64,000 nt of DNA from Flavobacteriales bacterium (GTDB lineage Bacteria; Bacteroidota; Bacteroidia; Flavobacteriales_F; PHOS-HE28), in assembly GCA_016713865.1 (NCBI GenBank), contig JADJOG010000045.1, forward strand, positions 34,898-98,897, given 5' to 3'. The notes beneath the pieces are model-generated. The model saw only the letters and a list, made by a program, of their open reading frames with translations. It was not told where the DNA came from and did not search any database. The translations under genes and the position numbers were made by a program. Shown here in pieces: positions 4,642 through 62,207 of this stretch (within the stretch, counting starts at the first letter, position 1; every line of letters begins with the position of its first letter).

Positions 4642-7176
<2,535 letters not shown>

Positions 7177-7208
7177 ACCCCAATAGCCCTTTCCCGTATG
7201 AACGGGCC

Positions 7209-8450: not shown

Positions 8451-8642
8451 CGCTGGCGCAGTTGAGCCTTTTGCATTTTTAATTCTTCTCCGAAGTTTCC
8501 TTCCCATCCCTCACCATCCGTTCGCCCTTCCCGCCGCTCATCACAGCCCTCCTCCCAGGCTGAGGCTCCCCGGTACTTTTGGTCCGTTCCCGCATTCCCA
8601 GCGGGAGAACCGGAACATGAGAGCCTTCTTTTCCTCGCGGCC

Positions 8643-22576: not shown

Positions 22577-22744
22577 ATGCCGCGTCACCGCACTCCCGCT
22601 CTGCGAGCATCGAAGACCTGCATGTCCTGCGGCCTTCCATTCCAATGGCGCAAGAAATGGGAGCGGGTCTGGGATGAAGTGAAGTACTGCAGCGACCGAT
22701 GCCGACAGCACAAGAGCCGCGCGCAGCGCATACTGTCCGCCTGA
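22577..22744 (+). CDS. DUF2256 domain-containing small protein
   Basis: A 55-aa ORF absent from the supplied track: [55 protein letters not shown]. Its CxxC...W.KKWE..W..VKYCS..CR pattern matches DUF2256, which is classically found beside FeS-BCP/CryPro photolyase genes. Confidence 0.65.
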
Positions 22745-28729: not shown

Positions 28730-29560
28730 TCATACCGGCGACACCGCTTTGGTGAGCATTGGGCATCGAATTCGGCGAAGCACACGCTCCGTGGTGCTGC
28801 CACGAAGGGCGTCCAGGAAGCCGTCGTGCCCCTGCGTGGGCATCACGATCAAGTCGGGTTTCCATTCAAGAGCCGCGTGGAGGATGCCGTCCACCACCTC
28901 GCCTTCGCGTTGCACTAGGCTCCATTCCCAACCGGGTCGTTGCGGGGCATGGTCAATCACATGTCCAAAGTCATCCCCTCCGATGCTGAGGAGCATGAAT
29001 CGCGCATCATCCACCTTCAGCACCTCAGCGATCCATGACGCCAGTGCGATGGCTTCGCTTGGTGATGGAGTGCTGGCGATGGGCAGGAGGATGCGTTGCA
29101 TTCTCATGACGCCCGACGATGGATCGAAGAAGCCCTGTGCATTGCTGGGGACGATAAGCGTTGGCAAGTGTGCCTCCCGCATGAGCGGCTCAGCCACGCG
29201 GCGCCCGAGCCAATCCATGGCTTCATCGCGCTGGTGGGTGTGAAGCACCACGAGGTCGGCGCGGTGATCCTTGAGGTAGGCTAGGCAGGCTTGGAGCGGA
29301 TCGCCGCCTTCCAGGATCTTGCGCACGCCGATGCCCATGTCGCGCAGTTCCTTGGATCCGTGCGCTTCGGTGATCACGCCCCAGCGCTTCAACGTGCTCC
29401 GCACTTGTGGCAACTCTTGCACGGATGTTTCGGCGCTTGAGCCTACATGCATCAATGTAAGAGTGGCGGATGCCGCCACCGTTAGGCCTAGCGCATGATA
29501 GAATGCAGGCATGGCCTCTTCTTCCAGATTGGTGGGGTGGAAGATGCGTTTGATCTCCAT
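28730..29560 (-). CDS. universal stress protein family protein (tandem UspA domains)
   Basis: Two Usp-like halves (VVLHTHQRD...LIVP and DLIVMPTQGHDGFLDALRGSTTERVLRRIRCPML). Start chosen at MEIKRIF. Confidence 0.75.
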   Translation of the reverse strand: MEIKRIFHPTNLEEEAMPAFYHALGLTVAASATLTLMHVGSSAETSVQELPQVRSTLKRWGVITEAHGSKELRDMGIGVRKILEGGDPLQACLAYLKDHRADLVVLHTHQRDEAMDWLGRRVAEPLMREAHLPTLIVPSNAQGFFDPSSGVMRMQRILLPIASTPSPSEAIALASWIAEVLKVDDARFMLLSIGGDDFGHVIDHAPQRPGWEWSLVQREGEVVDGILHAALEWKPDLIVMPTQGHDGFLDALRGSTTERVLRRIRCPMLTKAVSPV

Positions 29561-29905
29561 TGGCTTGTGCATGCTGCTAAGGTTTGGTCGGCTTTCATGC
29601 GCTAAGGTGATGCCCGTCATTCAATCGGCAGAGTTGGATTCAAATGGCATGTCTTGCGGGGGAAGCACGAAGGGGATGGACGGTCGTGCGCTACACACGC
29701 GCGTGTTGACAAGTGCGCACCGCTGCGAACAGCATCCCAAGAATGCCCCGATACGTTTGCCCGGCACCCTACCTGAACGCGCGTGCGCTTCTGCGCCATG
29801 GTGCATCGGTGGCTCTCCACACCGGTCATCGGGGACTGAAGCGTCCATTGGAGAAGTCCTCCATTGGTTTCGAGCCGAGGGCGGTGCTCACAAGCCGTTC
29901 GGCAC

Positions 29906-32900
29906 ATGATGGAACATCGACCCCTTGCCCTGGTGAGCAGCGCATCGCGCTCAATCCTTTCCCGGTTCATTAAGCCTCTGATCGCGTCGCTGGCCGCATT
30001 GCTGCTTTGGCAAGGCGAAGCGCGCGCCACCCACGCCATGGGCGGCGAGCTCACCTATGCTGGCATCTATCGCGTGCGCCTGAATTTCTATCGCGACTGC
30101 AATGGTGTGGAGGCGCCAACGAATTGCAGCAACGGCCGGCAATTCCGGTTGCGCAGCACGGCATGCGGGAACATCACGCTTAATCCATGCTTCGGTCTGG
30201 ATGGCGTCGACGTGGTTACTCCGCTATGTTTCGGAGCAGCCGACCGCTGCACCAATTCCAGCGCGCAGTACGGAATCCAGCGGTACCGCTACAGCGCGGT
30301 AGTGAACCTGAGCGCCTACGCGGCATGCGGCAGCGACTGGGTGATCGATTGGGACCTATGCTGTCGCAACAACGCGATCACCTCGCTCAACAATCCCGGT
30401 TCGCGCAACTTGTACCTGTACGCTAATCTGCGCCAGACCGTAACACCCTGCAATAACTCACCTAGCTTCCTGAACACGCCCACCCCGTTCGCCTGCGTGG
30501 GCCAGCAAGTGAGCTATAACCACGGCTTCAACGATGTGGATGGCGATTCACTCTCCTTCTCCCTGGTTGGCGCTTTAGGCTCGAATGGCAGCGCGATCCC
30601 CTACAATGCAGGGTACTCGGCCACGCAGCCGGTGGTTACCAGCGGCGGCGCCAATGCTGTGCAGATCAACCCGGTGACGGGGACCATCACCTTCGTTCCC
30701 AGCATCCAGCAGTTCGCTGTGGTGACCGTGCGCGTGCGCGAGTTCCGCAACGGCGTGCAGATCGGCGAACTGCTCCGCGACGTTCAGTTCGCGATCATCG
30801 CTTGCAGCAACAGCCTGCCACAAGCCACCGGCGTGAATGGCACTGGCACCTATACCTATAATGTGTGCGCAGGGGAGACTTTCTGCTTCACCGTGAACAG
30901 CAGTGATGCCGATGCCGCGCAGGTTGTGACCATGGCTTGGAACAATGGTATTCCGGGCGCCACCTTCACGACAACTAACGCTCCGCGTCCCGTTGGCACG
31001 TTCTGCTGGACACCTGGTGTCGGCGACATCGGCCAGAATCTGTTCAGCGTGAATGTGCAGGACAATGCCTGCCCGCTGGTTGGCCAGAACAATTTCGGCT
31101 TCGCGGTTCAGGTTACGCCGCCTTTCACGCCTGCTAATGCTGGCCCGGATCAGAATGTATGCGGCGCAACAGCGACGCTTGCAGGGCTGTTGCCATGGCC
31201 CGTGCAAGGTACTTGGTCCGTCATTAACGGTACCGGCACCTTCGCCAATGCGAATAGCCCGACCACCACGGTGAGCGGGTTGAGCCCGGGCACGAACACC
31301 TTACGATGGACCGTGAACTATGGCACCTGCGGCACCACGAGCGACGATGTGGTGATCATGAGCTTCAACCCTGCGCAGCCCGTGGCGAACGCTGGCCCCA
31401 ACCAGAGCCTTTGCCTGCCCAGCACCAGCACCGCATTGGCGGCGAATACCGCAGCCGCACCCGCTACGGGCCAATGGACCTTGGTGAGTGGCACGGGCAG
31501 TTTCGTGAATGCGAACAGCCCAACGACTCAAGTGAACGGTCTCAGTGTAGGTGCCAATGTCTTCCGCTGGACCATCAATAACGGGCCCTGTGGCGCACCC
31601 ACGAGCAGCAATGTCACGGTTTTCGTTTTCAGCAACGTGCAGCCTGCGGCGAATGCAGGCCCAGACCAGCAATTGTGCGCGCCTACGACCAGTGCCACGC
31701 TAGCTGGTAACGGCGTCATATTCCCTGCAACCGGAACTTGGACGGTTGCGAATGGCACGGGCACCTTCGTGAATGCGAACAGCCCATCCACCCAAGTGAG
31801 CGGGCTCAGCATCGGGGTGAATACATTCCGATGGACCATCAGCAACGGCCCTTGCCTGCCACCTACCACGCAGGATGAAGTGAACGTGGTGGTCTTCAAC
31901 CCGGCCAGCCCCAACGCGAATGCCGGACCCAACCAGCAGGTGTGCAGCAGCAGCACAACGCTTGCGGGCAATGCGCCATTGGCGCCGGCCACGGGGACCT
32001 GGAGCGTGATCAGCGGCACCGGCACATTCGCCAATGCGAATAGCCCAACCACTTCGGTGAGCGGGCTCTCCTTCGGCAACAACGTTTTCCAATGGACCTT
32101 GAGCAATGGTCCTTGCGCCAACGGCATCACCAATTCGCAGGTGACCATCACGCGCTTCGATCCCAATACGCCCGCTGCCGATGCAGGACCCGACCAGGAG
32201 CTCTGCACGATAGGCGCCACCGGATTCGCATCGGCTACCATGGCGGCGAGCGCAGCATCTGCACCGGCAACCGGCTCGTGGAGCATCATCAGCGGTCCTG
32301 CGGGAGCATTGATCACCACGCCTTCGAGCGCTGCGACCACAATCACCAACCTCGCGGTAGGCACCCACACCTTCCGCTGGACGGTGAACAATGGCCCTTG
32401 CATTCCGCCGACCTCCACGGACGATGTGGTGATCCGCGTGTACGACCGTAACGCACCCGTTGCGAACGCTGGCCCCAACCAGAACCTGTGCGCGCCTGTT
32501 GCAAGCGTGACGCTCGCCGCCAACGCAGCAACGGCACCTGCGATCGGCACATGGACGCTGGTGAGCGGTCAAGGAGTATTCGCCAATGCCAACAGCCCAA
32601 CCACCACGGTAACGGGCATGGCGATCGGCACGAACGTTTACCGGTGGACCATCGTGAATGGCCCATGCCCCGGAGCTATCACGTCAAGCACGGTTACCAT
32701 CACGCTCTTCGATCCCTCTGTTGCGGCGGCCAATGCCGGTCCGGATCAATCGCTCTGCGGCGCCACAAGCACTGTTATGGCGGCCAACGCCGTTGCGGCG
32801 CCTGCCGTTGGCACATGGAGCGTGGTGAGCGGCACCGCCACCATCAGCAATCCGAATAGCGCCACCACCGCCATCACGGGGCTGGGTACGGGCAGCGTCA

Positions 32901-35900
32901 CCTTGCGCTGGACGATCAGCAACGGGCCTTGCGGAAGCACGAACGACGATGTGGTGATCCTGAATTTCGACCCGAACAATCCTGTCGCCAACGCTGGCCC
33001 GGATCAGGAGATCTGTGTTCCTGTTGCGCCGAACGTGGTGTTCATGGCGGGTAGCCCGGTCACCTTCCCTGCGGTAGGCACATGGAGCGTTGTAAGCGGT
33101 CCGCCCGGCGCGGCCATCGCGAATGTGAATAGCCCGACAACGCAGATCGGGAACCTCACGGTTGGAACCTATGTGTTCAGCTGGACGGTTGACAACGGTC
33201 CATGCCCGAGCGGTATCACGACAGACAACATGACGGTGCGCGTGTTCGACTTCGGCAATCCCGCAGCGGATGCAGGCCCGGACATCTCGCTGTGCACCAC
33301 TGATGGTACAGTGACCATGGCGGGCAGCAACCTGATCAGCCCGGCTACCGGCCAATGGACCTTGGTGAGCGGCACTGGTGTGATCACGAGCCCTGGCAGC
33401 CCCACCACGACAGTTATCGGCCTGCAAGTGGGCCAAAGCATTTTCCAATGGACCGTTAGCAACGGACCCTGCAGTGGTGTGACCACGGATCAGATGAGCA
33501 TCTTCATCTACGATCCGAACAACCCGAACGCGAGCGCTGGACCGAACCAGGCTTTCTGCACACCGATCACCAGCACCACTATGGCCGGCAGCGCGGTCAC
33601 ATTCCCCGCGCAAGGCACATGGTCGCAAAGCGGCGGACCAGCAGCCACGATCGCCAGCCCCAACAGCCCCACCACGGCGATCACGGGATTGCAAGTAGGC
33701 GTGAGCCAATTCACCTGGACAGTGAACAATGGCGTGTGCCCCAACGGTGTCACCAGCAGCAGCATGACCATTACGCTGGCCGATGGTGATGCGCAGGCCG
33801 CCGCTGCCGGACCCGACCAGAGCGTTTGCGGCACGAGCAGCAGCGTGTTGATGGCGGCCAATGCGCCCACGGGTGTAGCTACCGCTAGTTGGAGCGTGGT
33901 TGCAGGAACCGGTTTCTTCAGCAACATCAACAGCCCCACCGCCACGGTAACGGGGATGAGCATTGGCTTGAACACATTCCGTTGGAGCATCGACAATGGC
34001 GCGTGCGGCATCACATCGGATCTGGTCGACATCTATGTGTACGATCCGAACAACCCAGTCGCGAATGCAGGTGCGGACCAGCAGCTGTGCACGCCCACCA
34101 CGAGCACCACGCTCACGGGCAGCAATTTGATTTTCCCCGCAGTGGGCCAATGGACCTTGGTGAGCGGCAGCGGCACTATTGCCAACCCCACCAGCCCCAG
34201 CACGGGCGTGAGCGGCTTGAGCATCGGCGCGAACGTGTTCCAATGGCAGGTGAACAATGGCGCTTGCCCCAGCCCCATCACCACCGATCAGGTAACGGTG
34301 TTCGTTTACGATAACGATGCGGCCGCGGCGAATGCCGGACCCGATATCGATGTGTGCACACCCACTAACAGCGTGAGCATGGCTGCCAACAGTCCGGTTG
34401 GCGTAGCGGTTGGGACTTGGACGCTCACCGGCGGCGCGGGCGGCACGGTAACCAATCCGAACAACCCGAACACCACGATCACCAACCTGCCCGTGGGCAC
34501 GCATACCTACGCTTGGACCATCGTGAACGGCAACTGCGCCACTACCAGCGATGAAATGGTTATTCGTGTGTTCAGCGCGCTGAACCCGAACGCCAACGCG
34601 GGCAACGATCAGCAGCTCTGCTTGCCTGCCACCACCACGACGCTGCAAGGCAGCAACGTGATAAGCCCGGCAACCGGGACGTGGACGCTGGTGAGCGGAA
34701 GCGGCACGCCCACCAACCCGGCTAACCCGAACAGCTTCGTGATCGGCTTGGCCGTTGGCGAGAACGTGTTCCAGTGGAACGTGAGCAATGGCCCTTGCGC
34801 CAACTCGCTCACAACGGATCTGGTGAGCGTATTCCTCTTCGATGATCAGCAGCCGCCTGCAGATGCTGGCGCCGACATTGAGATCTGCACGCCTGAGAGC
34901 GAAGTGACGCTCAGCGGCAACGATGTGATCTTCCCGGCAGAGGGCTTCTGGTTCCAAGTGAGCGGCTTCGGCACCATCACCGATCCGAGCGATCCCAACA
35001 CCACAGTTACCGGTCTGCCTGTTGGCGAGCACATTTTCCGGTGGGAGATCAGCAATGGTCCTTGCGGCGTGACGAATGATGATGTCGCCGTGCGTGTGTA
35101 CGATGTGAACAATCCTGTCGCGGATGCAGGGGCCGGATCAGGAGCTCTGCTTGCCGCAGACCAGCACCACCATGGCAGGCAGCAGCTTGATCTTCCCTGC
35201 CACGGGCCTATGGACGCTCGTGAGCGGACAAGGATCCATCGGCAGCCCCGGTTCGCCCACTACGGATATCACCAACCTGGCCGTTGGCGAGAACGTGTTC
35301 CAGTGGACGGTATTCAATGGCCCATGCAACGAGCCCACTGTTGATGTGGTGAGCATCTTCGTATTCGACGACCAGCAGCTTGATGCAGATGCTGGCGCGG
35401 ATCAGAGCCTATGCACGCCAACGAACGTCACCACGCTGTTCGGCAATGCGCTCACCTTCCCCGCCACGGGCACATGGACCTTGGTGAGTGGGCAGGGCAC
35501 CATCACTGATCCCGCTTCGCCGGTCACCACGGTTACCGATCTCGGTGTAGGCATCAATGTGTTCCGCTGGACGATCAGTAACGGACCGTGCCCCAACGGC
35601 CTCACGCAGGATGATGTGACCATCTTCCTGTTCGACCTGAACAATCCGCCCGCGAACGCAGGTCCGGATCAAGAGCTCTGCACGCCGCAGACCAGCACCA
35701 ACCTCGCGGGCAATACGCCCACGGTGCCTGCTATCGGCACCTGGTCGCTGATCAGCGGGCAGGGCGATATCACTGATCCGAACGATCCGAACACGCTGGT
35801 GACGAACCTGGCCGTGGGTGAGAACATCTTCCAATGGATCTTCGACAACGGGCCTTGTGAGACCAGCGGCAGCAGCGATCTGGTGAGCATCTTCGTTTAT

Positions 35901-38900
35901 CTCGATGAGAATCCTCTCGCGAACGCAGGACCAGATCAAGAGCTCTGCACGCCGAACATCACCAGCACCTTCCTGCAGGGCAGCGCCGTCACTTTCCCTG
36001 CGGTGGGCACATGGACATTGGTGAGCGGCACGGGCACCATCGCTCAGCCGAACAACCCCAACACGCAGGTATTCGATCTGGAGATCGGTTCCAGCGTATT
36101 CGAGTGGTCGGTTGACAACGGGCCTTGCGCAAGCGGCATCACCACCGATCAAGTGCTCATCGAGATCTTCGATGAGAACAATCCGAGCGCGAATGCAGGC
36201 GCTGATCAGAACCTGTGCACCAGCGATGGAACAACGGCTCAGTTGAGCGCCAGCGCGGTCACCTCGCCCGCGATCGGCACATGGACCCTTGTGCAGGGCC
36301 AAGGCACCTTCACGGATCCTAACGACCCCAACACCACGCTCACCAACATGGGCGTTGGCGTGATCGTGCTCGAGTGGTCCGTTGACAACGGCGCCTGCCC
36401 CAACGGTCTCACCAGCGACCAGCTCATCATCAACCTGTTCGACGAGAACAATCCGGTGGCCGATGCGGGTCCGGATCAAGAGCTATGCACGCCCACCGGA
36501 ACAACGATCGCCACCAACCTGCAAGGCAGCGCGATCATTGTTCCGGCATCCGGCACATGGACCGTTGTGAGCAGCACTGGCATTGTCCTGAACCCGAATG
36601 ACCCGAGCAGCGCTGTGGTCGGCCTTGGTGTCGGCGAGCACATCTTCCAATGGAGCGTGTTCAATGGCCCCTGCGACCCAAGCAGCACCACCGACATCGT
36701 GACCATCCGTGTTTATGATGAGAACAACCTCGATTCCGATGCGGGCCCTGATCAGCAAGTATGCACGCCGCTCACCAGCGCGACCATGGCTGGCAGCCCC
36801 ATCATCTTCCCTGCTGTTGGAACATGGACGCTGATCAGCGGGCAAGGCGACATCGCCGACCCCAACGATCCGAACACGGACATCACCAACCTCGGCCTCG
36901 GGGTGAACGAGTTCCAGTGGGAAGTGTACAACGGCAGCTGCCCCAACAGCCTCACGAGCGACCTGGTGACCATCACCTTGTTCGATGCCCAAGCACCTGC
37001 GGCTGATGCCGGGCCCGATCAAGAGCTCTGCTTCCCGATGATGCAGCAACCATCACGGGTAATGCACCGGTTGGAGCCGCCGTTGGCACATGGACGATCG
37101 TGAGCGGGCCAGGCAACATCACCGATGCGGCCTCGCCAGTGACCACTGTGACCAACCTGCTCGTTGGCGAGACCATCGTGCGCTGGACCATCACCAGCGG
37201 CGTGTGCGTGACCACCGACGACGAGGTGAGCATCCGTGTGTACGACCCGAACAATCCGCCGGCTTTCGCGGGCCTCGATCAAGAGCTGTGCGTGCCGCAG
37301 GACAGCGTGTTCATGGCAGGCAGCTCGTTGATCTTCCCCGCGGTGGGCACATGGAGCGTGATCGCTGGTGCGGGCACGCCGGTGAATCCGAACGATCCGC
37401 TCACGCTGATCGAGCAGATCGCCATCGGTGTGAATACTTACCAGTGGAGCGTCTATAACGGTCCCTGCGGAAGCAGTCTCGATGAAGTGAGCATCACGCT
37501 CTACGATGACACCACTGCTGCGGCCAATGCTGGTCCGGATATCGAGCTGTGCCTTCCCATCACCGACACCTTCCTGCAGGGCGAGCAGCCACCTGCTCCG
37601 GCCGAAGGGACTTGGACCTTGATCGCGGGCACGGGCTTCATTGTGAATCCCAACGATCCCAACACGCAGGTCACCGGACTTTCGCAGGGAACCAACGTGT
37701 TCGTGTGGACCCTTGAATGGGACCCCTGCCCCAACAACGGCATACTCACCGATACGATGGAGGTGCGCGTGTACAACCCGAACGCGCCATTGGCCGATGC
37801 CGGTCCGGACCAAGCGCTCTGCGATGCAACCAGCACCACGATGGTGGGCAATGTGCCCGAGGTTCCCGGTGTTGGAACTTGGACTCAGGTGCTCGGCGCC
37901 CCTGCAACCATCGTATCGCCTAACGATGCCGCAACGGCGATCACCGGCCTAGGTGTTGGCAGCTATCAGTTCGTGTGGGAGATCTACAACGGCCTTTGCG
38001 GCTTCGGACCGCCTAGCCGCGACACCGTGCAGGTTGATATCTACGACGGCGACGCTCCTGCAGCGCAAGCCGGCAACGACATCAGCTGGTGCACGCCCAC
38101 CAACAGCGCCGTACTCGTGGCCAATGATCCGGTATTCCCTGCGGTTGGCACCTGGACCTCGCTCTCCGGAACCGGCACCATTGCCGACCCGAACGACCCG
38201 AATACGGCTGTATTCAACCTCGGAGTGGGCCAGCACGATTTCCTGTGGACTATCGACAACGGCCCTTGCGGCAGCAGCAGCGACCAGATCAGCGTGTTCA
38301 TCTACGACGGTGATCAGGCTGCAGCCAATGCAGGTCCCGATCAACAGTTGTGCACGCCCACGACGAGCTCGACCCTGGCCGGCAACAGCGTCACCTTCCC
38401 CGGAACGGGTCAATGGAGCGTGATCGCGGGCACGGGCGCATTCGCCGATGCGAGCAACCCCAATACGGGCGTCAGCGGCCTTAGCATCGGCACCAACACC
38501 TTCCGCTGGAGCATCACGAATGGTCCGTGCGGCGATACGCAGGACGATGTGACGATCACGGTGTACAACGATGCGCAACCATCGGCGAATGCCGGTGCGG
38601 ATCAGCAGCTGTGCACGCCAACGAGCAGCACCAACTTGCAAGGCAGCGCGGTGACCTTCCCGGCAACCGGCAACTGGGTGTTCGTGCAGGGCAGTGCTAC
38701 CCTCAGCAGCTCCAGGCAGTCCCAATGCAACACTCAGCGGTCTCACCGTTGGAACCTATGTGCTGCAATGGGTGGTCGATAACGGACCGTGCGGCACCAG
38801 CACCGACAACGTGACCATTGAGGTCTTCGACGGAACAGCGGCTCCGGCGGCGGCTGGTCCGGATCAATCGTATTGCACGCCCATCACGCAGCAAGTGAGC

Positions 38901-39641
38901 ATGCTCGCCAGCGCGGTTGCTGCACCCGGCGTGGGTACATGGTCAATCGTAAGCGGCTCTGCAACCATCGCGCAGGACACCGATCCCTTCACTGTGATCA
39001 CCAACCTGGGCCTTGGGGCCAACGTGTTCCAATGGACCGTTGACAATGGCGCATGCGGCACCACCAGCGATCAGATCACGATCATGGTGTACGACCACAC
39101 CGTGCCTGCGGCGAATGCCGGTCCGAGCCAGCAGTTCTGCCAGGATGTGAGCACCACGACCCTCGGCGCAGTGCCCGCCACCAGCACCGCGAGCGGAAGC
39201 TGGAGCCTGTTGAGCGGCAGCGGCAACATTGAGCAGCCCGGCAACCCGAACAGCGCGGTCAACGGCCTTGCGCTTGGCTACAACGTGTTCCTGTGGACGC
39301 TGAACAACGGCGACTGCGGCACCACCACCGATACGATGACGGTGTATATCAAGGACTGCCTCACGATCAAGATCCCCGATGCCTTCTCACCCAACGGCGA
39401 TGGCACCAACGACGAGTTCGTGATCACCAACATCGAGAGCTATCCGAACAACACCTTCCAGGTATTCAACCGCTGGGGCAACAAGGTGTACGAGGCATCG
39501 CCTTACACCAACAAGTGGGACGGCACCAGCCAGTTCGGATCGGCATTCAAGGAAGGACTGCCGGAGAGCACCTACTACTACATCCTGGACCTCGGCAACG
39601 GCAGCGATGCCTACACCGGATTCATCTACCTGCGACGCTAA
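29906..39641 (+). CDS. giant cell-surface adhesin (SprB-like organisation) of ~3240 aa with about 32 tandem ~85-aa repeats and a C-terminal T9SS type B (gliding motility-associated) sorting domain, carrying 3 single-base frameshifts
   Basis: Signal peptide (IKPLIASLAALLLWQGEARA), a Cys-rich N-terminal domain, and repeats of consensus NAGPDQxLCxPxTSxTLAGN..FPAxGTWTLVSGxGTxxNPNSPTTxVTGLxVGxNVFxWTVxNGPC...TTDxVTIxVFD. The C-terminus is IPDAFSPNGDGTNDEFVI...VFNRWGNKVY...STYYYIL. Four ORF-track pieces (29864..35344, 35124..37103, 37100..38782, 38694..39641) are contiguous in homology, with 1-nt indels near 35128, about 37045 and about 38705. Confidence 0.75.
31120..39350 (+). repeat. in-frame tandem array of ~255-nt (about 85-aa) coding repeats inside the giant adhesin gene
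   Basis: The NAGPDQ / GTW(T/S)(L/V)VSG / NGPC landmarks recur at a period of about 255 nt. The copies differ at the nucleotide level by roughly 30-50%. Confidence 0.7.
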
Positions 39642-39684
39642 ATCATGCACGGGTGCGCGGTAACGTGCTCCAACAGATACACCG

Positions 39685-40620
39685 ATGAAGATGAGAACCG
39701 CCAAACGATGGATCGGCAGCGCGCTGGGGATGCTCCTGGGCACCGTGCTCCTGGCCCAGCAGGACCCGCAGTTCACCCAGTACATGTTCAACATGCTGGC
39801 GCTGAACCCGGCCTACGCTGGAAGCAGCGACCGCATCAGCTTGAAGGCGCTGAGCCGCCACCAATGGGTGGGCTTCGAGGGCGCGCCCACCACGCAGACG
39901 CTCACCATACACAGCCCGGTATTCAACGAGAGCTTCGCGCTGGGCGGCACCATCATGCGCGATGCGCACGGACCCATCACGCAATACACCTTCATGGTCG
40001 ATGCGGCCTATCGCATCTTCATGGGTGATCAGAAGCTCGCCTTCGGCCTCAAAGGCGGCCTCAACCTCTTCCAAGGGAAGTTCGCCGAGCTGAATCCGCA
40101 GACCGCGGGCGATCAAGTGTTCCAGCAGAACGTGAACTCGAAGCTCGATCCGCAATTCGGCTTCGGCATGATGTGGTACAGCGACCGCCACTATTTGGGC
40201 CTGAGCACTCCGAAGCTCCTGCGGACGGAATTCTTCAAGGAAGACTCCCTCGCCTTCGTGAGCTCGCCAGGGCAGCGCCCGCACTATTTCCTCACCGGCG
40301 GCTACGTGTTCGATCTCGGTCTCTACCACAAGTTCAAGCCCACCTTCCTCCTGAAAGCCGTGCAGGGCGCGCCCATGAGCTTCGACCTGAGCGCGAACGT
40401 GCTCTTCTATGAGAAGTTCTGGCTCGGCGCCATGTATCGTCACAAGGACAGCGTGGGCCTGATGGCGCAATACCACATCACCGACGATTTCACCGCGGGC
40501 TATGCCTACGACATCACGCTCTCGCCGCTGCGCAACTATAGCGGCGGCAGCCACGAGATCATGCTCGGGTATGAGTTCGGCAAGCGCGCCAAAGGAATCC
40601 GTTCACCACGCTACTTCTGA
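39685..40620 (+). CDS. PorP/SprF family type IX secretion system membrane protein
   Basis: The signal peptide then QQDPQFTQYMFNMLALNPAYAGS is the hallmark PorP/SprF N-terminus, and the ~310-aa beta-barrel size fits. It lies immediately 3' of the type-B CTD adhesin, as sprF does in the sprB operon. Confidence 0.8.
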   Translation: MKMRTAKRWIGSALGMLLGTVLLAQQDPQFTQYMFNMLALNPAYAGSSDRISLKALSRHQWVGFEGAPTTQTLTIHSPVFNESFALGGTIMRDAHGPITQYTFMVDAAYRIFMGDQKLAFGLKGGLNLFQGKFAELNPQTAGDQVFQQNVNSKLDPQFGFGMMWYSDRHYLGLSTPKLLRTEFFKEDSLAFVSSPGQRPHYFLTGGYVFDLGLYHKFKPTFLLKAVQGAPMSFDLSANVLFYEKFWLGAMYRHKDSVGLMAQYHITDDFTAGYAYDITLSPLRNYSGGSHEIMLGYEFGKRAKGIRSPRYF

Positions 40621-40622
40621 TC

Positions 40623-42800
40623 ATGAAGCAACGCATCCACATCCGGCTCGCCCTACTTGTACTGGCACTGGTGGCCGCACCAGCGCTGCGCGCGCAGAAG
40701 CTGCAGCAGCGCATGGCCGACCGTTACGCCGACGTTTTCGACTACAGCAGGGTGGCCGCCATATATGAGGACCTTGATGGCAAAGGCAAGAGCGACGCGG
40801 CCAGCCTGCGCCGTTTGGCTTTGGCTTACCGCAAGCTCGGCAACGCCCCCGCTGCTGAAGGCGCCTATCGCCGATTGATGATCACGCCCGGCCGCAATGC
40901 CGATGACATCCTCAACTTCGCTGATCAGCTGCGCGCCAATGGCAAGTACGGTGAAGCACTGGAGCAATATGCCATCTATGCGAAGGAGCGTCCGGACGAT
41001 ATGCGGGCACAAGGCTACCTGCGCAGTGAGAACCTCTTTTATAGGTTGAAGCGCGACAGCACCAGCGCTACCATCCGCCAACTCCCCATCAATAGCGCGG
41101 ATGCCGATCTGGGCGCTACCGTGATGGAGGAGCTGCTTGTCTTCAGCAGCGCGCGCGGCGATGGCGCCGGCGGCCGCCGCATGTACGCTTGGGACGATCA
41201 GCCCTTCCTGAACCTGCACACGGCGCTGCTGAAAGGGGAGACCGCTGAAGACCCGATCGTGATGCGCAATGATGTGAACAGCCGCTACCACGATGGCATC
41301 GCCAGCTTCGATTCACTGGCCAAGCGCATGTACTTCACCCGCAACCAGTATTACTACGGAGAGGTGAAGCGGAGCGAGCGCGGCGAGCTCAATCTGGGCA
41401 TCTACTTCACCGACGTTGTGAACGGCGAGTTCGGCCAGCTCGAATGGAGCAACCTCGTGCCCTTCGAGCATAACGATGAGAACTTCAGCACCGGTCATCC
41501 GCGCGTGAGCCCCGATGGCCGCCGACTCTATTTCGTGAGCGACCGTCCCGGCGGGATCGGCGGCACCGACATCTGGTTCTGCGACAACCTCGGCAACCAA
41601 TGGGGCGTGCCGCAGAATCTCGGCCCCAAGGTGAATACGCCGGGCGATGAGCTGCATCCGTACATCGCCGCGAACAACACGCTCTACTTCGCCAGCACGG
41701 GCCATCCGGGCCTCGGCGGTCTCGACCTCTTCTACACGCGCATCGGCGTGAACGGCCCGGGCAACGTGTTCAACATGGGCTATCCCATGAGCACGCGCTT
41801 CAATGATCACGGCCTACTGCTCATCAACGACAGCACGGGCTTCTTCAGCAGCGATCGAGCCGGCGGCCAAGGCAGCGACGACATCTATGGCTGCACCATC
41901 AGGCCGCCCATGATCCACCTCGCGGGCATCGTGATCGACAAGAACACACGCGAGCCCATCGAGGGCGCCACCATCCTGCTCAAGGATGAGAAGGGCCAGC
42001 ATGTGAAGCGCGCGCAGCTCGAGACCCTCGCTGGCGGCAAGTTCCGCATGGAGGCCGAGTACCACGAGAAGTACCTGCTGGTGGCCACGGCCAGCGGCTA
42101 CTACCAGACCGAGCTGGCGATCAGCACCAACGAGGATCCGCTGGAGGATATCGTGGTGGAAATGGTGAAGTACGACTATGCCGCCGAGGGCACCGTGTTC
42201 GACGGCGAGACGAATGCTCCGTTGGCCGGGGCCACCGTGGTGCTCACCGATGCCAAGGGCGAAGAAGTCGGCCGCGTGACCACCGATGCCACCGGCACTT
42301 ACCACTTCCCCTTGCTGAAGGACAGCGACTACAAATTGCAGGCGGAGAAGGATGGCTACTTCAAGCAGAGCGCTCGCATAACGACCAAGGGCAAGCCCAG
42401 CGCGATCATCGTGACGGATTTCCGCCTCTTCCCGCTGAAGGTGGATCAAGTGGTGCGCCTGGAGAACATCTTCTACGACTACAATAAGTCGAACATCAGG
42501 CCCGATGCAGCGGTGGAACTGGATAAGCTGGTTCAGACGCTCAACGACAACCCGACGGTTCGCATTGAGCTGAGCAGCCACACCGATTGCCGCGGCAAGG
42601 ACGCATACAACCTGAACCTCTCCGAGAAACGCGCGAAGAGCGCCGTGGAATACTTGATCAGCCAAGGCATCGCGAAGGGCCGCTTGGTGAGCAAGGGCTA
42701 CGGCGAGAGCAAGCCGAGCGAGACCTGCGTTTGCGAGAAGTGCAGCGAGGATCAGCACCAGAACAACCGTCGCACCGAGTTCAAGGTGCTGAGCAAATAG
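40623..42800 (+). CDS. PorE-like outer-membrane protein (TPR, TolB-like beta-propeller, carboxypeptidase-regulatory-like domain and OmpA_C domain)
   Basis: Signal peptide, TPR helices (AYRKLGNAPAAEGAYRRL), WD40/TolB-like repeats (DGRRLYFVSDRPGGIGGTDIWF, LYFASTGHPGLGGLDLFY), a carboxypeptidase-regulatory-like beta domain (AGIVIDKNTREPIEGATILL), and a C-terminal OmpA domain (ELSSHTDCRGKDAYNLNLSEKRAKSAVEYL...NRRTEFKVL). Confidence 0.75.
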   Translation: MKQRIHIRLALLVLALVAAPALRAQKLQQRMADRYADVFDYSRVAAIYEDLDGKGKSDAASLRRLALAYRKLGNAPAAEGAYRRLMITPGRNADDILNFADQLRANGKYGEALEQYAIYAKERPDDMRAQGYLRSENLFYRLKRDSTSATIRQLPINSADADLGATVMEELLVFSSARGDGAGGRRMYAWDDQPFLNLHTALLKGETAEDPIVMRNDVNSRYHDGIASFDSLAKRMYFTRNQYYYGEVKRSERGELNLGIYFTDVVNGEFGQLEWSNLVPFEHNDENFSTGHPRVSPDGRRLYFVSDRPGGIGGTDIWFCDNLGNQWGVPQNLGPKVNTPGDELHPYIAANNTLYFASTGHPGLGGLDLFYTRIGVNGPGNVFNMGYPMSTRFNDHGLLLINDSTGFFSSDRAGGQGSDDIYGCTIRPPMIHLAGIVIDKNTREPIEGATILLKDEKGQHVKRAQLETLAGGKFRMEAEYHEKYLLVATASGYYQTELAISTNEDPLEDIVVEMVKYDYAAEGTVFDGETNAPLAGATVVLTDAKGEEVGRVTTDATGTYHFPLLKDSDYKLQAEKDGYFKQSARITTKGKPSAIIVTDFRLFPLKVDQVVRLENIFYDYNKSNIRPDAAVELDKLVQTLNDNPTVRIELSSHTDCRGKDAYNLNLSEKRAKSAVEYLISQGIAKGRLVSKGYGESKPSETCVCEKCSEDQHQNNRRTEFKVLSK

Positions 42801-42916: not shown

Positions 42917-43951
42917 CTACGCCCAAACTGGCGATCCCTCGGAGCAATTCCTGCACATCTCGATGCTGCTTCGTGAATGAAGCAGCGAGCGGCGGAACGT
43001 GTTGTAGGCATCGCTGCGCCACAGCTCGTTGAAACCATGCGTGCGCAGATCGCCAAGCACATGGTGCGCGTCCTTGTCGAAGCAGCAAGGGACCACGCGG
43101 CCATCCCAAGTGATCACGCAACTGTGCCACATCTTCCAGCAATTGTCCTCCAATCTGCTCTTCACTTCCCACACGCCCTGCGCATTGCGGCGGTAGCGCG
43201 CGTACTTGTCCTGCACGGGTATGAGCGGATGATCGTCCTTGGGGTCGTAGATCTGCGCGGTCTTCAGCCATAGCTCATCCACGCCCAGTTCGCGCCAGTT
43301 TGCGCGCCTCGGAATCTGGTGCTCGTTGGGTTTCACCACCAGGAACTGGAACACCACATGCGGCGTGCGGCTCTTCAGCCTGCGCTTCCACGCCACGATC
43401 CTGCGCGTGCCCTCGATCACTTTGGCGAGCTCGCCTTCGCGGCGGTACTGCTCGTAGGTCTCCTGTGTTGTGCCATCGAGCGAGATGATGAGTCGCGATA
43501 GGCCGCTGCGCACGGTGGCTTCGGCGCTGGCGTCGTCGATGAAGTGCGCATTGGTGCTGGTGGCGGTGTAGAGGCCGCGGTCGTGGGCATGCCGCACCAT
43601 GTCGAGGAAGCGCGGGTTGATGTAGGGCTCACCCTGGAAATAGAAGGTGAGGGCCCAGAGGTCGGGCGCCAGCTCATCGATCACGCGCGTGAAGAGCTCC
43701 TGTTTCAGGTTGCCGGTGGGGCGTGTGAAGCTGCGCAGACCGCTCGGGCATTCGGGGCAGCGCAGGTTGCAGGCCGTGGTGGGCTCGAAGCTGATGCTGA
43801 AGGGCATGCCGCCGATGCGCGGCTCCTTGCTCCGCTTGGCACGTTGGAAGCTGGTCCATAAGGCGGCGGCGTTGCGCAGGCGGCGCGGCGTGGCGTACCG
43901 GCTCCATTCGTAGGCATCACGCGCGCGTGCAAGCATCTGTCTAGGCCCCAT
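42917..43951 (-). CDS. radical SAM/SPASM domain protein
   Basis: FEPTTACNLRCPECPSG (CxxxCxxC) and a C-terminal Cys-rich SPASM-like region (CWKMWHSCVITWDGRVVPCCFDKD...CRNCSEG). The start is uncertain between the ATGs at 43951 and 43936. Confidence 0.7.
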   Translation of the reverse strand: MGPRQMLARARDAYEWSRYATPRRLRNAAALWTSFQRAKRSKEPRIGGMPFSISFEPTTACNLRCPECPSGLRSFTRPTGNLKQELFTRVIDELAPDLWALTFYFQGEPYINPRFLDMVRHAHDRGLYTATSTNAHFIDDASAEATVRSGLSRLIISLDGTTQETYEQYRREGELAKVIEGTRRIVAWKRRLKSRTPHVVFQFLVVKPNEHQIPRRANWRELGVDELWLKTAQIYDPKDDHPLIPVQDKYARYRRNAQGVWEVKSRLEDNCWKMWHSCVITWDGRVVPCCFDKDAHHVLGDLRTHGFNELWRSDAYNTFRRSLLHSRSSIEMCRNCSEGSPVWA

Positions 43952-44131
43952 GGGCTGGTGGGGCAAGGTATAGGCGGTGCGCCTCCAGCCTTTGCATTGA
44001 TCACATCCGTTCGTGGTGCAGGGCGCCTCTTTATCGACCAAACATCGACTGCCCGGGTCAACGGTCCACACGACTCGGGGGCATTCGTGCATTCATCCGC
44101 GAACACGCATCTTTAGCCTTTCACATCATCC

Positions 44132-45383
44132 ATGATCGCGTCCCGGACTTTGCTGAGTGCCCGAGCATTCGTCCTTTTCGTGTTGCTGTGCGGCTCGGTC
44201 CCTTCGATGCACGCTCAGCCATACACCGTCAAGGCGGTTTACGATTCGCTCGACACGCGCCACGACTTGAAGCGGCCCTTGATCGAGCGTTACTTCATCA
44301 CAAGCAATCATCACTGGGCCTGTTTCAATCGGGGACTGATCGCTGAGGCGAGGATCACCTCCAAGGAAGAGCTTGAGCTGGCTGAGCAGCTCGGCATCGA
44401 TAGTCTGCTCGCGACCGCCTCGCACCATGTGGGCGATGCCTTCAACGGGTCGGCGGATGCGGCTTTGCAGTTGAAGTATTTCTATCAAGGCCTGGAGTAT
44501 GCGCAACGCTCCGGCATTCCGAACTATATCGGCACCGCGCAGAAGCAGATCGCCACCGTACGCCTATGCCCGTTCCTATTACATGTTGGGATCAGCATAC
44601 GCGGCGAAGCGCGAACGCCAGCTGGCCGATGTCCATTTCGCACGCGCGATCGAGGTGGCGGATTCCTTCCAGGTGATGATCCCGCTCTTTGGTTCCTTGT
44701 TGGGCCGGGGCCAGATGCAATTGGAGGCGGGCGACATCCCCGCTGCCATTGCTGACGGTAGGCGTGCCTTGCTCGTGAGCAGCAACGGGGGCAACCTCGA
44801 AGGCTTGGTGGGTGCATCAGACCTCTTGCGCCGATCCTTCAAGGCGCTTGGGGAAACCGACAGCGCGTACCACTACTTCGAGCTGCGCGTGATGTACGCC
44901 GACAGCCTGATCAACGCCACCAACCTGAACAAGCTGCAGAACATGGCTTTCGCGCAGGAGCTGAAAGAGCGCGAGGTGGCTAAGGCGAAAGAGGATGAAC
45001 AGGCGACCCGCTCCCGCAACATCCAGTTCGGGATCATCGCCCTCATTGTGATCACCCTCGGCATTTTCCTGCTCGTGCTCAGCCGCACCGCTATTGTAGG
45101 TGCGAGGACCATCAAGAACCTCTCGCTCATCGCGCTGCTGCTCTTCTTCGAGTTCATCAACCTGCTGGTGCATCCGTTCCTCGGCGAACTGACGCACCAC
45201 TCACCGCTGCTCCTGCTGTTGTGCATGGCGGCAATCGCCGGTTTGCTCATTCCGCTGCACCATCGCATGGAGCACTGGATCACCAACATGCTCGTGAGTA
45301 AGAACAACCGCGTGCGGTTGGAGGCGGCAAGGAGGACGATCGAGGAATTGGAATCGCGAACGGAAGAGCGCCCAACGAACTAG
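44132..45383 (+). pseudogene. paralog A of the TPR-like membrane protein family, with an internal deletion/frameshift
   Basis: The N-terminus resembles paralog E (YDSLDTRHD...), and the C-terminal TM module is intact. About 85 aa are missing relative to E, with a frame change near 44560-44600, so the track splits it into ORFs 44132..44755 and 44499..45383. Confidence 0.55.
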
Positions 45384-45386
45384 CGC

Positions 45387-46826
45387 ATGCAAGCCACAAG
45401 GGACCGAATGAAGTCACTGCGGATCGGGCTGGTCGCCGTCATGCTCGGCATGTTGCCGTCGGTGGGCCACGCTCAATTCGTTATCGCCCAATTGGACACG
45501 CTCGATGTGCGGCATGACAAGTCGCAGTCCATAGACGTCCGCCTCGAAGCAGCAAAGGACCACGCCATCGCTTGTTTGTACGCCGGGCGCGCCGAAGAAC
45601 TGCGGAGCACAGCACTGTTCATGCTGGATCTGGTGCCCGAAGCGAAGGAGGACTCGACGCTGGGCCAGACCTACCTGATGGTGAGCTACTCGTGCAAAGA
45701 GAGTGACCCCGGCAAGGGCCTGGAATACATGCACAAGGGGCTGGAGCATGCGGAGCGGAGCGCGATGCCCGGCCTGATCGGCTGGGTGGAGAAGGAGATC
45801 GGCGTCTTGTACAAACAGATGGGGCAGTTCCGCGAAGCGATCAACTGGATGAAGCGTGCAGAGGGGCATGTGAAGGGCTGGGTGGAAGTGAACCGCACGC
45901 ATTGCCATTTGAGCGAGGCGTATGCAGCCATCGGCCTGTTGGACTCTGCCATGTTCCATGCGCAGGCGTCCAACATCATTACCTCCGCGGCGATGGATCC
46001 ATACGGCTACGCCCGTTCGCAGCTGGTGCTGGGCAAAGCCTACACTGCCAAGAATGAGTTGGACATGGCCGAGCTCTTCTTCCGGAAGGCGATCGCCGTT
46101 TGCGATTCGTTCGGCGTGGTGCGGGTGATGCCTGTTGCGCTAGTGGGTGCGGCCCATGTGCGGCTTTCCGCCGGCGACCCTAACACTGCGGTCGGTCTTG
46201 GCCAGCGTGCCCTGGCTGTTGCCGAGCGCTCGGAGAACCTGCCCTCCTCCATCGAGGCCACTCACCTGTTGGAACGAGCCTATCACGCCGCAGGCAAGCC
46301 AGACAGCGCTTACCTCATCCTGAAACTGCATGCCACCTTGCAGGACAGCCTGGTGAGCGCCGAGAAGCTGAGCAAGGTGGAGAACATGCGCTTCGGCCAG
46401 CAGTTGAAAGCCAAGGAAGAGGAACAAGCGCGCATAGAGGCCGAGCAGGAACGCTCCCGCAACATCCAGTTCGGGATCATCGCGCTCATCGTCATTACGC
46501 TCGGCATCTTCCTGCTCATCTTCAGTCGCACGGCGGTTGTTGGCGCCAAGGCCATCAAGAACCTCTCGCTCATCGCGCTGCTGCTCTTCTTCGAGTTCAT
46601 CAACCTGTTGGTGCATCCGTTCCTTGGAGAACTTACACATCACTCGCCGATCCTCATGTTGCTGTGCATGGCCGCGATCGCCGGGCTGCTGATCCCGCTG
46701 CACCACCGCATGGAGAAGCTGATCACCAACATGCTTGTATCGAAGAACAACCGCGTGCGCTTGGAAGCGGCGCGGAAGACGATCGAGGAGTTGGAGGGAA
46801 GTCGCGGAGAAACGAACGCAAGCTGA
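45387..46826 (+). CDS. paralog B of the TPR-like triple-TM membrane protein family
   Basis: Signal peptide, TPR-like helical repeats, a coiled-coil (EKLSKVENMRFGQQLKAKEEEQARIEAE), then the conserved module RSRNIQFGIIALIVITLGIFLL..AIKNLSLIALLLFFEFINLLVHPFL..LLCMAAIAGLLIPLHHRME..NMLVSKNNRVRLEAARKTIEELE. Confidence 0.7.
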   Translation: MQATRDRMKSLRIGLVAVMLGMLPSVGHAQFVIAQLDTLDVRHDKSQSIDVRLEAAKDHAIACLYAGRAEELRSTALFMLDLVPEAKEDSTLGQTYLMVSYSCKESDPGKGLEYMHKGLEHAERSAMPGLIGWVEKEIGVLYKQMGQFREAINWMKRAEGHVKGWVEVNRTHCHLSEAYAAIGLLDSAMFHAQASNIITSAAMDPYGYARSQLVLGKAYTAKNELDMAELFFRKAIAVCDSFGVVRVMPVALVGAAHVRLSAGDPNTAVGLGQRALAVAERSENLPSSIEATHLLERAYHAAGKPDSAYLILKLHATLQDSLVSAEKLSKVENMRFGQQLKAKEEEQARIEAEQERSRNIQFGIIALIVITLGIFLLIFSRTAVVGAKAIKNLSLIALLLFFEFINLLVHPFLGELTHHSPILMLLCMAAIAGLLIPLHHRMEKLITNMLVSKNNRVRLEAARKTIEELEGSRGETNAS

Positions 46827-46831
46827 TCGCC

Positions 46832-48307
46832 ATGAATGCAAGGAAACTTCAGCAACGAACCGTATCCATGGTGTTCAGACCACTCGTTCTGCTAATCGGC
46901 ATCGGTTGTATAGGACAACTGCGCGCCCAACCGCTCGACACGCTCTTTGTCAGGCTGCGCGGCCTGCCGGTCGATTCACTGGAAGCACGCGAGCGGGCAG
47001 CGACCGACCCCCGGATGAAGATGGTTGCCATCAACAGGCTTACCGGTCAGTACGCTTTTCTCGGTCGCACGGAGGACTGCATGAAGGCAGCGATGCGCGG
47101 ACTTGAGTTGGCAGAAACGACCAAGAACGACACGCTGCTCGCCCTGGCCCACTTCGGTATCGGAGTGGCGTTCACCAGGCTCAGCGATGTGAACGGGGCG
47201 CTGAGGCACTTCAACATCGCCTTCGATGGCTACCAGCAGATCGGGGACAGCATGCGCATGAGCCTGACCTGCAAGGAGACCGCGATCGTGTACCAGCAGG
47301 TCGGGGATATCGATGGCACCTTGCGCTACATGCGGAAGGCACAGGCCTATGGCTTGGGTCAAGGGATCCACGGGCGTTCGATGACGATCCTGGCAAGGTG
47401 CCACATGGATCGCGGCGATCTGGACTCCGCGCTCTACTATGCCCGCCTGGCTGATGTCATGAAGGCGCCCGGCACGGATCCGTACGGCTACGCCGGCTAC
47501 AAGCTCATCATGGCTAATGTGCATGCTGCGCGTGGTGAGGGCGATGTGGCCGAACCCTACTACAAGAGAGCATTGGCGGTGGCGGATTCAGCTAGAACGC
47601 TGGATGCGCTGATAGGTGGTTCGGCCGGGTATGCGAAGCTGCTCATTGGCCAGGGGCGCGCTGCTGAGGCGCTTGACTGGGCGCGCAAGGGATTCTCGGC
47701 CACCGACGAAGTGCGGCTGCCAGTTCTCATGATCAAGTCCACCACGGCCTTGTCGGAAGCCTTTGCCGCGAATGGCATGACTGATAGCGCGCTGGTGTAT
47801 TCTCGGATCGCTCATGCCTGGCGCGATTCGCTCACGGCCTTGCAGAACAGGAGCCAGCTTCAGAACCAGTTGTTCACGCAGGAACTGAAGGACCGTGAGG
47901 ATGCGAAGGCCCGCGAGGAAGCCAAAGAAGAACGCTCCCGCAACATCCAGTTCGGCATCATTGCGCTCATCGTCATCACGCTCGGGATCTTCCTGTTGGT
48001 CTTCAGCCGCACAGCGGTGGTTGGAGCCAAGGCGATCAAAAACCTCTCGCTCATCGCGCTGCTGCTCTTCTTCGAGTTCATCAACCTGCTGGTGCATCCG
48101 TTCCTCGGTGAACTGACGCACCACTCACCGCTGCTTCTGCTGCTCTGCATGGCCGCCATCGCAGGCTTGCTTATTCCGCTCCATCACCGCATGGAGCACT
48201 GGATCACCAACATGCTCGTGAGCAAGAACAACCGGGTGCGGTTGGAAGCGGCGCGGAAGACGATAGAAGAACTGGAGGCGAGGCCAAATAACACCAATCC
48301 GAGCTGA
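46832..48307 (+). CDS. paralog C of the TPR-like triple-TM membrane protein family
   Basis: The ATG at 46832 gives MNARKLQQRTVSMVFRPLVLLIGIGCIGQLRAQP; the same architecture and the conserved C-terminal module. Confidence 0.7.
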   Translation: MNARKLQQRTVSMVFRPLVLLIGIGCIGQLRAQPLDTLFVRLRGLPVDSLEARERAATDPRMKMVAINRLTGQYAFLGRTEDCMKAAMRGLELAETTKNDTLLALAHFGIGVAFTRLSDVNGALRHFNIAFDGYQQIGDSMRMSLTCKETAIVYQQVGDIDGTLRYMRKAQAYGLGQGIHGRSMTILARCHMDRGDLDSALYYARLADVMKAPGTDPYGYAGYKLIMANVHAARGEGDVAEPYYKRALAVADSARTLDALIGGSAGYAKLLIGQGRAAEALDWARKGFSATDEVRLPVLMIKSTTALSEAFAANGMTDSALVYSRIAHAWRDSLTALQNRSQLQNQLFTQELKDREDAKAREEAKEERSRNIQFGIIALIVITLGIFLLVFSRTAVVGAKAIKNLSLIALLLFFEFINLLVHPFLGELTHHSPLLLLLCMAAIAGLLIPLHHRMEHWITNMLVSKNNRVRLEAARKTIEELEARPNNTNPS

Positions 48308-61824: not shown

Positions 61825-61877
61825 CGTGATGGATCGCGAAGTTGGGCCGATTCGGTACAACTCGGAAAGGCTTGGGT

Positions 61878-62207
61878 TCATTCCGCCTGCCACTCGAAGA
61901 CCCACTCCGTCCGCACCCACTTCTCGCCGGGCTTGGCGAAGGGCAGCGGTTGTTGGAAGGTGGACATGAGTTCCTCCCATTCCTGCACGCGCGGAGGCAG
62001 CGATGCCCCGCCACCATCCGTTGCGGCTCCGGTGCTGCTCTCCACGATCATGAATAGCCTGTTGCCTGCGCGATGGATGCTGCATTGCGTGATCCCGCTC
62101 GCGCGCAGATGGTCCAGCACCTCGGGCCACACGTTGCGGTGCCAGCGCTCGTACTCAGCGATCAACGCGGGGTCGTCCTTCAGGTCGAGGGCGTAGCAGG
62201 TGGTCAT
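61878..62207 (-). CDS. rhaM: L-rhamnose mutarotase
   Basis: 109 aa: MTTCYALDLKDDPALIAEYERWHRNVWPEVLDHLRASGITQCSIHRAGNRLFMIVE... is the typical RhaM pattern. The ORF-track 5' extension to 62738 is unsupported. Its start overlaps the fucP stop (ATGA). Confidence 0.8.
   Translation of the reverse strand: MTTCYALDLKDDPALIAEYERWHRNVWPEVLDHLRASGITQCSIHRAGNRLFMIVESSTGAATDGGGASLPPRVQEWEELMSTFQQPLPFAKPGEKWVRTEWVFEWQAE

Follow-up and report, generated by a model that had tools for sequence, protein, structure and literature searches.

Is a giant surface protein that is encoded next to a PorP/SprF-like partner carried along a gliding track, or is it tied to the cell wall? The question is raised by a locus in a 64,000-nucleotide stretch (the window) of contig JADJOG010000045.1, which comes from an uncultured Flavobacteriales clade with ~60% G+C. 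Between 29.9 and 42.8 kb of the window lie three co-oriented genes on the + strand, coding for an adhesin, a PorP/SprF-like protein and a PorE-like protein, hereafter the tether. We propose that they form an operon composed of a type IX secretion system (T9SS) cargo of type B and an anchoring pair private to it, and that the adhesin is static and fixed to the cell wall; we give this reading a probability of roughly 0.7.

Read directly from the DNA, the adhesin gene ends with TAA at 39639-39641 and the PorP/SprF-like gene starts with ATG at 39685, which leaves a spacer of 43 nt. The latter stops with TGA at 40618-40620, and the ATG of the tether follows at 40623 after a spacer of 2 nt. Genes of the opposite strand flank the triad on both sides, Usp on one (28730-29620) and radical SAM/SPASM on the other (42917-44092).

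The first protein is assigned to the type B cargos by its C-terminal sorting domain (CTD), placed at the extreme C-terminus and scoring above the curated cut-offs. TIGR04131 matches residues 225-315 of the last adhesin open reading frame (ORF) with 60.7 bits (cut-off 35) over the whole profile, positions 1-85 of 85, and PF13585 (CHU_C) matches the extreme C-terminus of the same ORF, the only one to carry it, with 104.8 bits (cut-off 27; profile positions 1-86 of 86). The K319L-like PKD family PF22352 is present in all four ORFs into which the gene is broken. Using a hidden Markov model of our own construction, we count 31 contiguous units over residues 412-3154, with a mean pairwise identity of 48%. 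SprB repeats (PF13573) occur in none of the four ORFs, where PF22352 and PF13585 are the only families matched.

Read by eye, the N-terminus of the adhesin consists of a hydrophobic segment, PLIASLAALLLW, and then ARA/TH (the slash marks the end of the putative signal peptide). The start codon is uncertain: either the ATG at 29906 or an in-frame GTG nine codons downstream. The head that comes next gave no match in the Pfam search. Its AlphaFold2 (AF2) model, with a predicted local distance difference test (pLDDT) score of 94.4 and a predicted template modelling (pTM) score of 0.90, shows three beta-sandwich domains, whose best matches in the PDB are protocadherin EC1-4 and the Ig domains of Dscam/contactin. 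On this model the folds are those common to adhesion proteins in general; an enzyme fold is not seen. We found 166 homologues of the head on cargos with SprB-repeat, PKD or K319L-PKD stalks and with CTDs of type A or type B; some stand alone as proteins of ~475 aa made of the head and a type A CTD (for example P0200 and P0205-P0207, in the range P0121-P0240). Lacking a Pfam family and recurring on many Bacteroidota T9SS cargos, the head could merit a family definition.

The second protein, 311 aa long, scores 271.8 bits on TIGR03519 (cut-off 90.55), aligned to profile positions 12-292 of 292, and PF11751 gives 274.5 bits (cut-off 22.3). It is identical in L001, L002 and L003, three independent metagenome contigs with DNA 98.8-99.6% identical to the window and an identical tether. 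We predict that it is the cognate shuttle and anchor of the adhesin.

The third protein follows the domain order of PorE, that is TPR, beta-propeller, carboxypeptidase regulatory-like domain (CRD) and OmpA_C-like domain, with a second CRD inserted. Its AF2 model, obtained from a 33-sequence alignment, has a pLDDT of 80.8. The propeller is matched by Foldseek to those of acylaminoacyl peptidase, prolyl oligopeptidase and GH43 enzymes, and both CRDs are modelled as sandwiches of the prealbumin/CRD type. With its second CRD, the tether is ~85 aa longer than the PorE and CHU_0125 profiles (648 and 639 positions, respectively).

Among solved structures, the best relative of the tether OmpA domain is 6TOP, PorE's C-terminal domain (E 5.9e-33, 43% identity); the next OmpA-like chain comes at 6e-19. 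The peptidoglycan-contacting residues of PorE are Asp576, Asn584 and Arg591 (PMC7192894). In the tether they align with D655, N663 and R670, all three invariant in the 33 homologues, and we propose that this domain binds peptidoglycan as well. Elsewhere in the window, a 428-aa OmpA-family protein is encoded at 7164-8447 (+), directly 5' of a TolC-like outer-membrane protein (8466-10031); it is a peptidoglycan-binding envelope protein unrelated to the triad.

A preliminary description of the window had named the same three proteins. Its type B adhesin of ~3240 aa has the CTD and the repeats announced, and 3244 aa once repaired, but is not the single ORF described: four ORFs are separated by three frameshifts. 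The PorP/SprF-like protein is indeed found right after it, at 43 nt and not the 44 given. A protein of PorE architecture 2 nt further on is confirmed by Pfam matches and by structure prediction, the check suggested at the time with the propeller and the CRD at stake: TPR, propeller, two CRDs and OmpA are all seen in the AF2 model.

Cluster representatives of the tether number more than 120, with 61-90% identity and lengths of 717-747 aa throughout; those whose source is named are metagenome-assembled genomes (MAGs) of Flavobacteriales. The cargo evolves about as slowly: it is colinear with its orthologues over ~3000 aa at 81, 77, 66, 55, 53 and 51% identity, with 4-47 gaps, and the number of repeats is thus fixed in the clade. 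The triad recurs in three MAG contigs. Two of their cargos measure 3250 and 3254 aa, the third is split into 813 + 2459 aa, and the downstream genes are different in each.

For wider counts, we scanned species-representative genomes with patterns specific to the tether subfamily and kept the best 80 loci, 74 of which have enough upstream DNA to be usable. The 80 loci include, at 30-39% identity, Chitinophagales, Sphingobacteriales, Cytophagales (Pontibacter, Spirosoma, Fibrella, Rudanella) and others. A PorP/SprF homologue lies directly 5' of the PorE-like gene in 68/74 usable loci, and 64/74 hold the full triad, in which PorP comes right after the end of a type B CTD; these are distributed over Flavobacteriales, Chitinophagales, Sphingobacteriales and Cytophagales. 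In many of the usable loci the cargo ORF fills the entire 9-kb flank. Three distant loci of the scan (L054, L057 and L070) have, at ~14.6-16.0 kb in each, PorP 5' of the PorE-like gene with no detectable type B CTD before it. Each also holds another CTD-PorP pair and another PorE-like ORF, an arrangement that resembles a tandem or rearranged triad.

Proteins of the same three types are found in Porphyromonas gingivalis, as PorE (PG1058), PorP and PG1035. Their genes presumably stand at separate loci. Gorasia et al. 2022 isolated the PorE-PorP-PG1035 complex (PMC9143113); PG1058 itself is co-transcribed with pg1056 and pg1057 (PMC5053529), and PMC12773672 counts PorE among the T9SS components essential for gingipain secretion. 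The domain order of PorE is that of the tether, TPR, a propeller of the five-blade type, CRD and OmpA_C (PMC5053529), and the Asp, Asn and Arg in contact with peptidoglycan are conserved between the two. However, PG1058, ~670 aa long, has a single CRD and is predicted to be a lipoprotein, whereas the tether has 725 aa, two CRDs and a signal peptide of signal peptidase I (SPI) type. CHU_0125, an OmpA-like outer membrane integrity protein of C. hutchinsonii, also has TPR, PD40 and OmpA_C domains, and differs from the tether by the ~85 aa of the second CRD; the passages of PMC5891637 that describe it treat it as a Pal-like envelope protein and mention neither a cargo nor a PorP neighbour.

A close parallel is offered by F. 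johnsoniae. According to a 2025 study in Communications Biology, type B cargos need a shuttle encoded immediately downstream, and this species has five operons made of a cargo, a SprF-like protein and a PorE homologue, one of which, Fjoh_3952/3951/3950, behaves as static (PMC12618676). As Kulkarni et al. 2019 are cited in PMC9143113, six F. johnsoniae porP-like genes adjoin porE-like genes, and sprB/sprF do not. Fjoh_3952/3951/3950 and its four to five sister operons share with our locus the order cargo, SprF-like, PorE homologue and the type B CTD (PMC12618676, PMC9143113). The likeness to the Fjoh_3952 operon, including a predicted static wall-anchored adhesin, is drawn from published gene order and domain type. 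Our locus differs by a cargo of ~3244 aa with 31 PKD repeats of K319L type and a head outside Pfam, by a tether with two CRD sandwiches and no lipoprotein cysteine, and by its host, an uncultured clade with high G+C.

Altogether, what the preliminary description said of type B cargos, that they need a PorP/SprF-like partner encoded downstream, agrees with PMC12618676 and with the arrangement here, 43 nt apart and kept in 64/74 loci. A dedicated attachment complex for the adhesin, also suggested there, is the best reading of the locus, but it is not new. The coupling to a PorE-like protein cannot be called less commonly described: it was already published (PMC9143113, PMC12618676), and the same 64 of the 74 loci carry the full triad. 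Of the 'gliding or adhesion locus', we keep adhesion; gliding is made less likely by the lack of SprB repeats and of sprC/sprD and by the presence of a PorE-like partner.

We now propose a sequence of events for the locus. Our own data establish gene order and spacers, family membership, domain architecture, and the conservation of both the peptidoglycan-contact residues and, in relatives, the triad; protein-protein contacts, T9SS dependence and static behaviour are inferred from the homologous systems of P. gingivalis and F. johnsoniae. The giant protein would be exported by Sec. The PorP/SprF-like beta-barrel would recognise the CTD of this cargo at the T9SS translocon, extract the cargo and keep it bound to the surface. 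The tether would use its TPR and propeller to bind PorP on the periplasmic face, and its OmpA_C-like domain to bind peptidoglycan. The long fibril would thereby be a static adhesin held by the cell wall and not carried on a gliding track. The prediction of a static adhesin follows from the published model, which ties a PorE-like partner to nonmobile cargos: mobile type B cargos are postulated to bind PorP-like proteins only, and nonmobile ones to be also tied to the wall, through complexes of the PorP-PorE-like kind (PMC9143113). SprB-type adhesins have no PorE-like partner.

The locus could instead be of the SprB/SprF type, its giant protein being a mobile adhesin carried by the gliding motor like SprB of F. 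johnsoniae. A giant repetitive protein whose CTD is of type B and a PorP/SprF-family gene immediately after it do reproduce the sprB-sprF arrangement (PMC12618676). But compared with sprCDBF the stalk lacks PF13573 repeats and is made of K319L-like PKD repeats, and no sprC/sprD-like genes were found upstream of the adhesin, where the neighbour is the Usp gene on the opposite strand. The published pattern of mobile cargos, absence of a PorE-like gene (PMC9143113, PMC12618676), is not seen here either: one sits 2 nt after PorP, whereas sprB/sprF and other mobile cargos do without and the static Fjoh_3952 has one. We hold a gliding function to be highly improbable. A different view takes PorP and the tether as general, essential T9SS components of the clade, and the adhesin as a merely co-located passenger similar to PG1035. 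The strong conservation and uniform length of the tether speak for it, as does the fact that the MAGs of the clade are each represented by one locus among the best 80; moreover, the single PorE-PorP pair of P. gingivalis serves general secretion and binds the sole type B cargo. However, the tether falls below the curated PorE cut-off. Heath et al. 2016 listed 424 PG1058 homologues, with 2-13 per species in some cases and longer CRD regions in some (PMC5053529); many Bacteroidota have several PorE homologues, and several of those of F. johnsoniae are linked to cargos. Our scan patterns were specific to the subfamily and would miss other paralogues in the same genomes. Tight translational coupling to one cargo, and similar rates of cargo and tether, fit a dedicated module, and we judge the general role unlikely.

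The condition of the adhesin gene bears on what the operon makes. Its span of 9736 nt is not divisible by 3, and three frameshifts leave the window with no intact adhesin reading frame: the four ORFs (29864-35344, 35124-37103, 37100-38782 and 38694-39641) alternate in frames 2/0/2/0. In a three-frame translation, the repeat pattern carries on across every junction in the adjoining frame. Within the adhesin, the window and L001 (98.8% identical) differ by indels only at the three frameshift sites, one base each, and in L001 the frame is open over all 8907 nt on the contig (2968 aa). The overlap of L003 takes in only site 3, where it agrees with L001. Removal of one G at site 1, addition of one C at site 2 and removal of one G at site 3 restore a stop-free protein of 3244 aa. 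As far as sequence comparison tells, homopolymer indel errors in the assembly are the likeliest cause of these breaks. The alternative, a true pseudogene of the strain whose operon would express PorP and the tether only, is suggested by three frame-breaking indels within one 9.7-kb gene, with both downstream genes and several long genes of the window intact. Against it, two of the indels are one-base length changes in G or C runs of 3-4 nt and the third is G versus GG; all three are private to this assembly, L001 being in frame and L003 likewise at its one covered site. The G+C content at third codon positions (0.73-0.77) and the repeat conservation are undiminished past every shift, and orthologues in other species are intact and colinear. 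The housekeeping gene metH is also full of frame switches: its region, 2948-7173 (+), holds at least four, with S-methyl_trans intact at 2948-4048, Pterin_bind split over two frames (4636-5187 and 5081-6085) and the B12-binding and activation parts in further frames. This mosaic indicates either a locally high indel error rate of the assembly or a decayed gene; since metH in the window is frame-broken too, assembly error becomes likelier for the adhesin. We find a pseudogene very unlikely. Phase variation was rejected as a cause of the indels, because three separate breaks in runs of 2-4 bases misfit a slipped-strand switch.

Several points weigh against an intact, wall-fixed adhesin system. 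The tether reaches 387.1 bits on NF052230 (T9SS_PorE), under the cut-off of 600, and 440.7 bits on its best-scoring NCBIfam model, NF053607 (CHU_0125), under the cut-off of 620; an identical protein is named 'carboxypeptidase regulatory-like domain-containing protein' by NCBI. By the NCBI criterion it is therefore PorE-like, not PorE, and should bear neither the name PorE nor CHU_0125. It has no lipobox cysteine, and in 33/33 homologues the signal peptide ends ...A/QKL with no conserved cysteine, so association with the outer membrane would depend on PorP alone. All contacts in the scheme above are transferred from homologues, and the static prediction builds on a published postulate together with a single tested cargo, from F. 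johnsoniae. No core T9SS gene (gldKLMN, sprA) turned up in the ORFs of the window that were screened. Finally, the adhesin indels could be real lesions of the strain: the window holds other long genes that are intact (mfd, 1192 aa), and assembly errors are therefore not uniform.

The features of the locus are collected in Table 1.

Table 1. Positions of the adhesin operon and its parts in the window (residue numbers refer to the tether or adhesin protein; a slash in a sequence marks the end of the signal peptide)
Feature	Position	Strand	Basis or remark
Candidate promoter box TACGTTTG	29752..29759	+	match to TAnnTTTG, 147 nt 5' of first ATG
Giant type B T9SS cargo (adhesin) gene	29906..39641	+	three single-base indels; repaired, 3244 aa; PF22352 and PF13585
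Putative adhesin signal peptide region, residues 1-41 (...LLLWQGEARA/TH)	29906..30028	+	read from sequence by eye
Adhesin head, three beta-sandwich (Ig/cadherin-like) domains, 367 aa	30029..31138	+	AF2 model; no Pfam family
Adhesin stalk, 31 back-to-back K319L-like PKD repeats, ~88 aa each	31139..39368	+	PF22352, E 1.6e-85
Frameshift site 1	35129..35132	+	GGGG in window vs GGG in independent assembly L001
Frameshift site 2	37034..37036	+	CCC in window vs CCCC in independent assembly L001
Frameshift site 3	38715..38716	+	GG in window vs G in independent assemblies L001, L003
Type B C-terminal sorting domain, last 90 aa and stop codon	39369..39641	+	TIGR04131, PF13585
PorP/SprF-family outer-membrane beta-barrel protein, 311 aa	39685..40620	+	TIGR03519, PF11751
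PorE-like periplasmic tether, 725 aa	40623..42800	+	PD40, CarboxypepD_reg (twice), OmpA, weak TPR matches
Tether signal peptide	residues 1-24	+	SPI-type
Tether TPR-like paired helices	residues 41-144 (40743-41054)	+	AF2
Tether beta-propeller	residues 149-426 (41067-41900)	+	AF2, PD40 matches
Tether CRD 1 sandwich	residues 430-514 (41910-42164)	+	AF2, CarboxypepD_reg
Tether CRD 2 sandwich	residues 519-602 (42177-42428)	+	AF2, CarboxypepD_reg
Tether OmpA_C-like peptidoglycan-binding domain	residues 610-724 (42450-42794)	+	AF2, OmpA match

TAnnTTTG is the -7 consensus of Bacteroidota promoters. The window contains 4 matches to it, fewer than the 8.2 expected by chance, and TACGTTTG can serve only as a weak lead for the promoter of the adhesin operon. 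In scans of the operon and its surroundings, neither sigma-70 promoters nor intrinsic terminators rose above chance.

Other T9SS cargos are encoded in the window, which makes a T9SS in this genome very likely to judge from its gene content, and a functional one at that. [quoted passage not shown] Just 5' of it, at 17349-18821 (+), is a truncated PKD/SprB-repeat-like type B ORF of 490 aa, whose CHU_C domain reaches only position 46 of the 86 in the profile. Since no PorP/SprF gene comes after either of them, both would be 'orphan' cargos in need of a shuttle encoded elsewhere. On the - strand, an 842-aa protein of BNR/sortilin type with a type A CTD (PF18962) occupies 59602-62130; the genome thus encodes both cargo classes.

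Further irregularities of the sequence were noted around the locus. In the radical SAM/SPASM gene (-), the window has CGCG at 43290 and GG at 43310, as opposed to CGCGCG and GGG in L001-L003; these indels, also private to this assembly, amount to a net -3 nt, shift seven codons locally and let the frame be regained. Within 22699-25549 (+), a DPRP-family (photolyase-related) ORF overlaps the next ORF of the same strand (23601-24278) by ~350 nt in another frame, which may be another frameshift; a photolyase gene comes after. A run of paralogous TPR-protein genes extends over 44499-51215 (+), where 48307-49785 and 49626-51215 overlap in different frames and may likewise reflect a frameshift. From 44559 on, identity of the window to L001 and L002, otherwise 99%, falls to ~81%; L003 has a ~190-nt insertion absent from the window, beyond which 100% identity persists. 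The pattern suggests recombination or misassembly among the TPR paralogues. As for the adhesin itself, it should be flagged in annotation as a single frameshifted gene, most likely through homopolymer errors, and not as four genes.

One could go further and see in the triad, instead of an exchangeable adhesin cassette, a lineage-wide surface structure of constrained length: a fixed-length fibril rooted in the cell wall that would serve structure or spacing, and whose PorP/PorE pair would perhaps also be the only, and essential, T9SS pair of the clade. The points cited for it are the same 31-repeat register from 81% down to 51% identity, the slow evolution of the cargo, the loss of the lipid anchor and the gain of a second CRD. 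We consider this quite unlikely.

The locus is only mildly unusual: its repeats number 31 throughout the clade, its tether has two CRDs and is not a lipoprotein, and its head lies outside Pfam. It should not count as evidence of gliding motility. The coupling of a cargo to PorP-like and PorE-like proteins being already published, it adds one well-conserved example of a known operon type, and this class of type B cargo, PorP-like and PorE-like operons is widespread across the orders of Bacteroidota.

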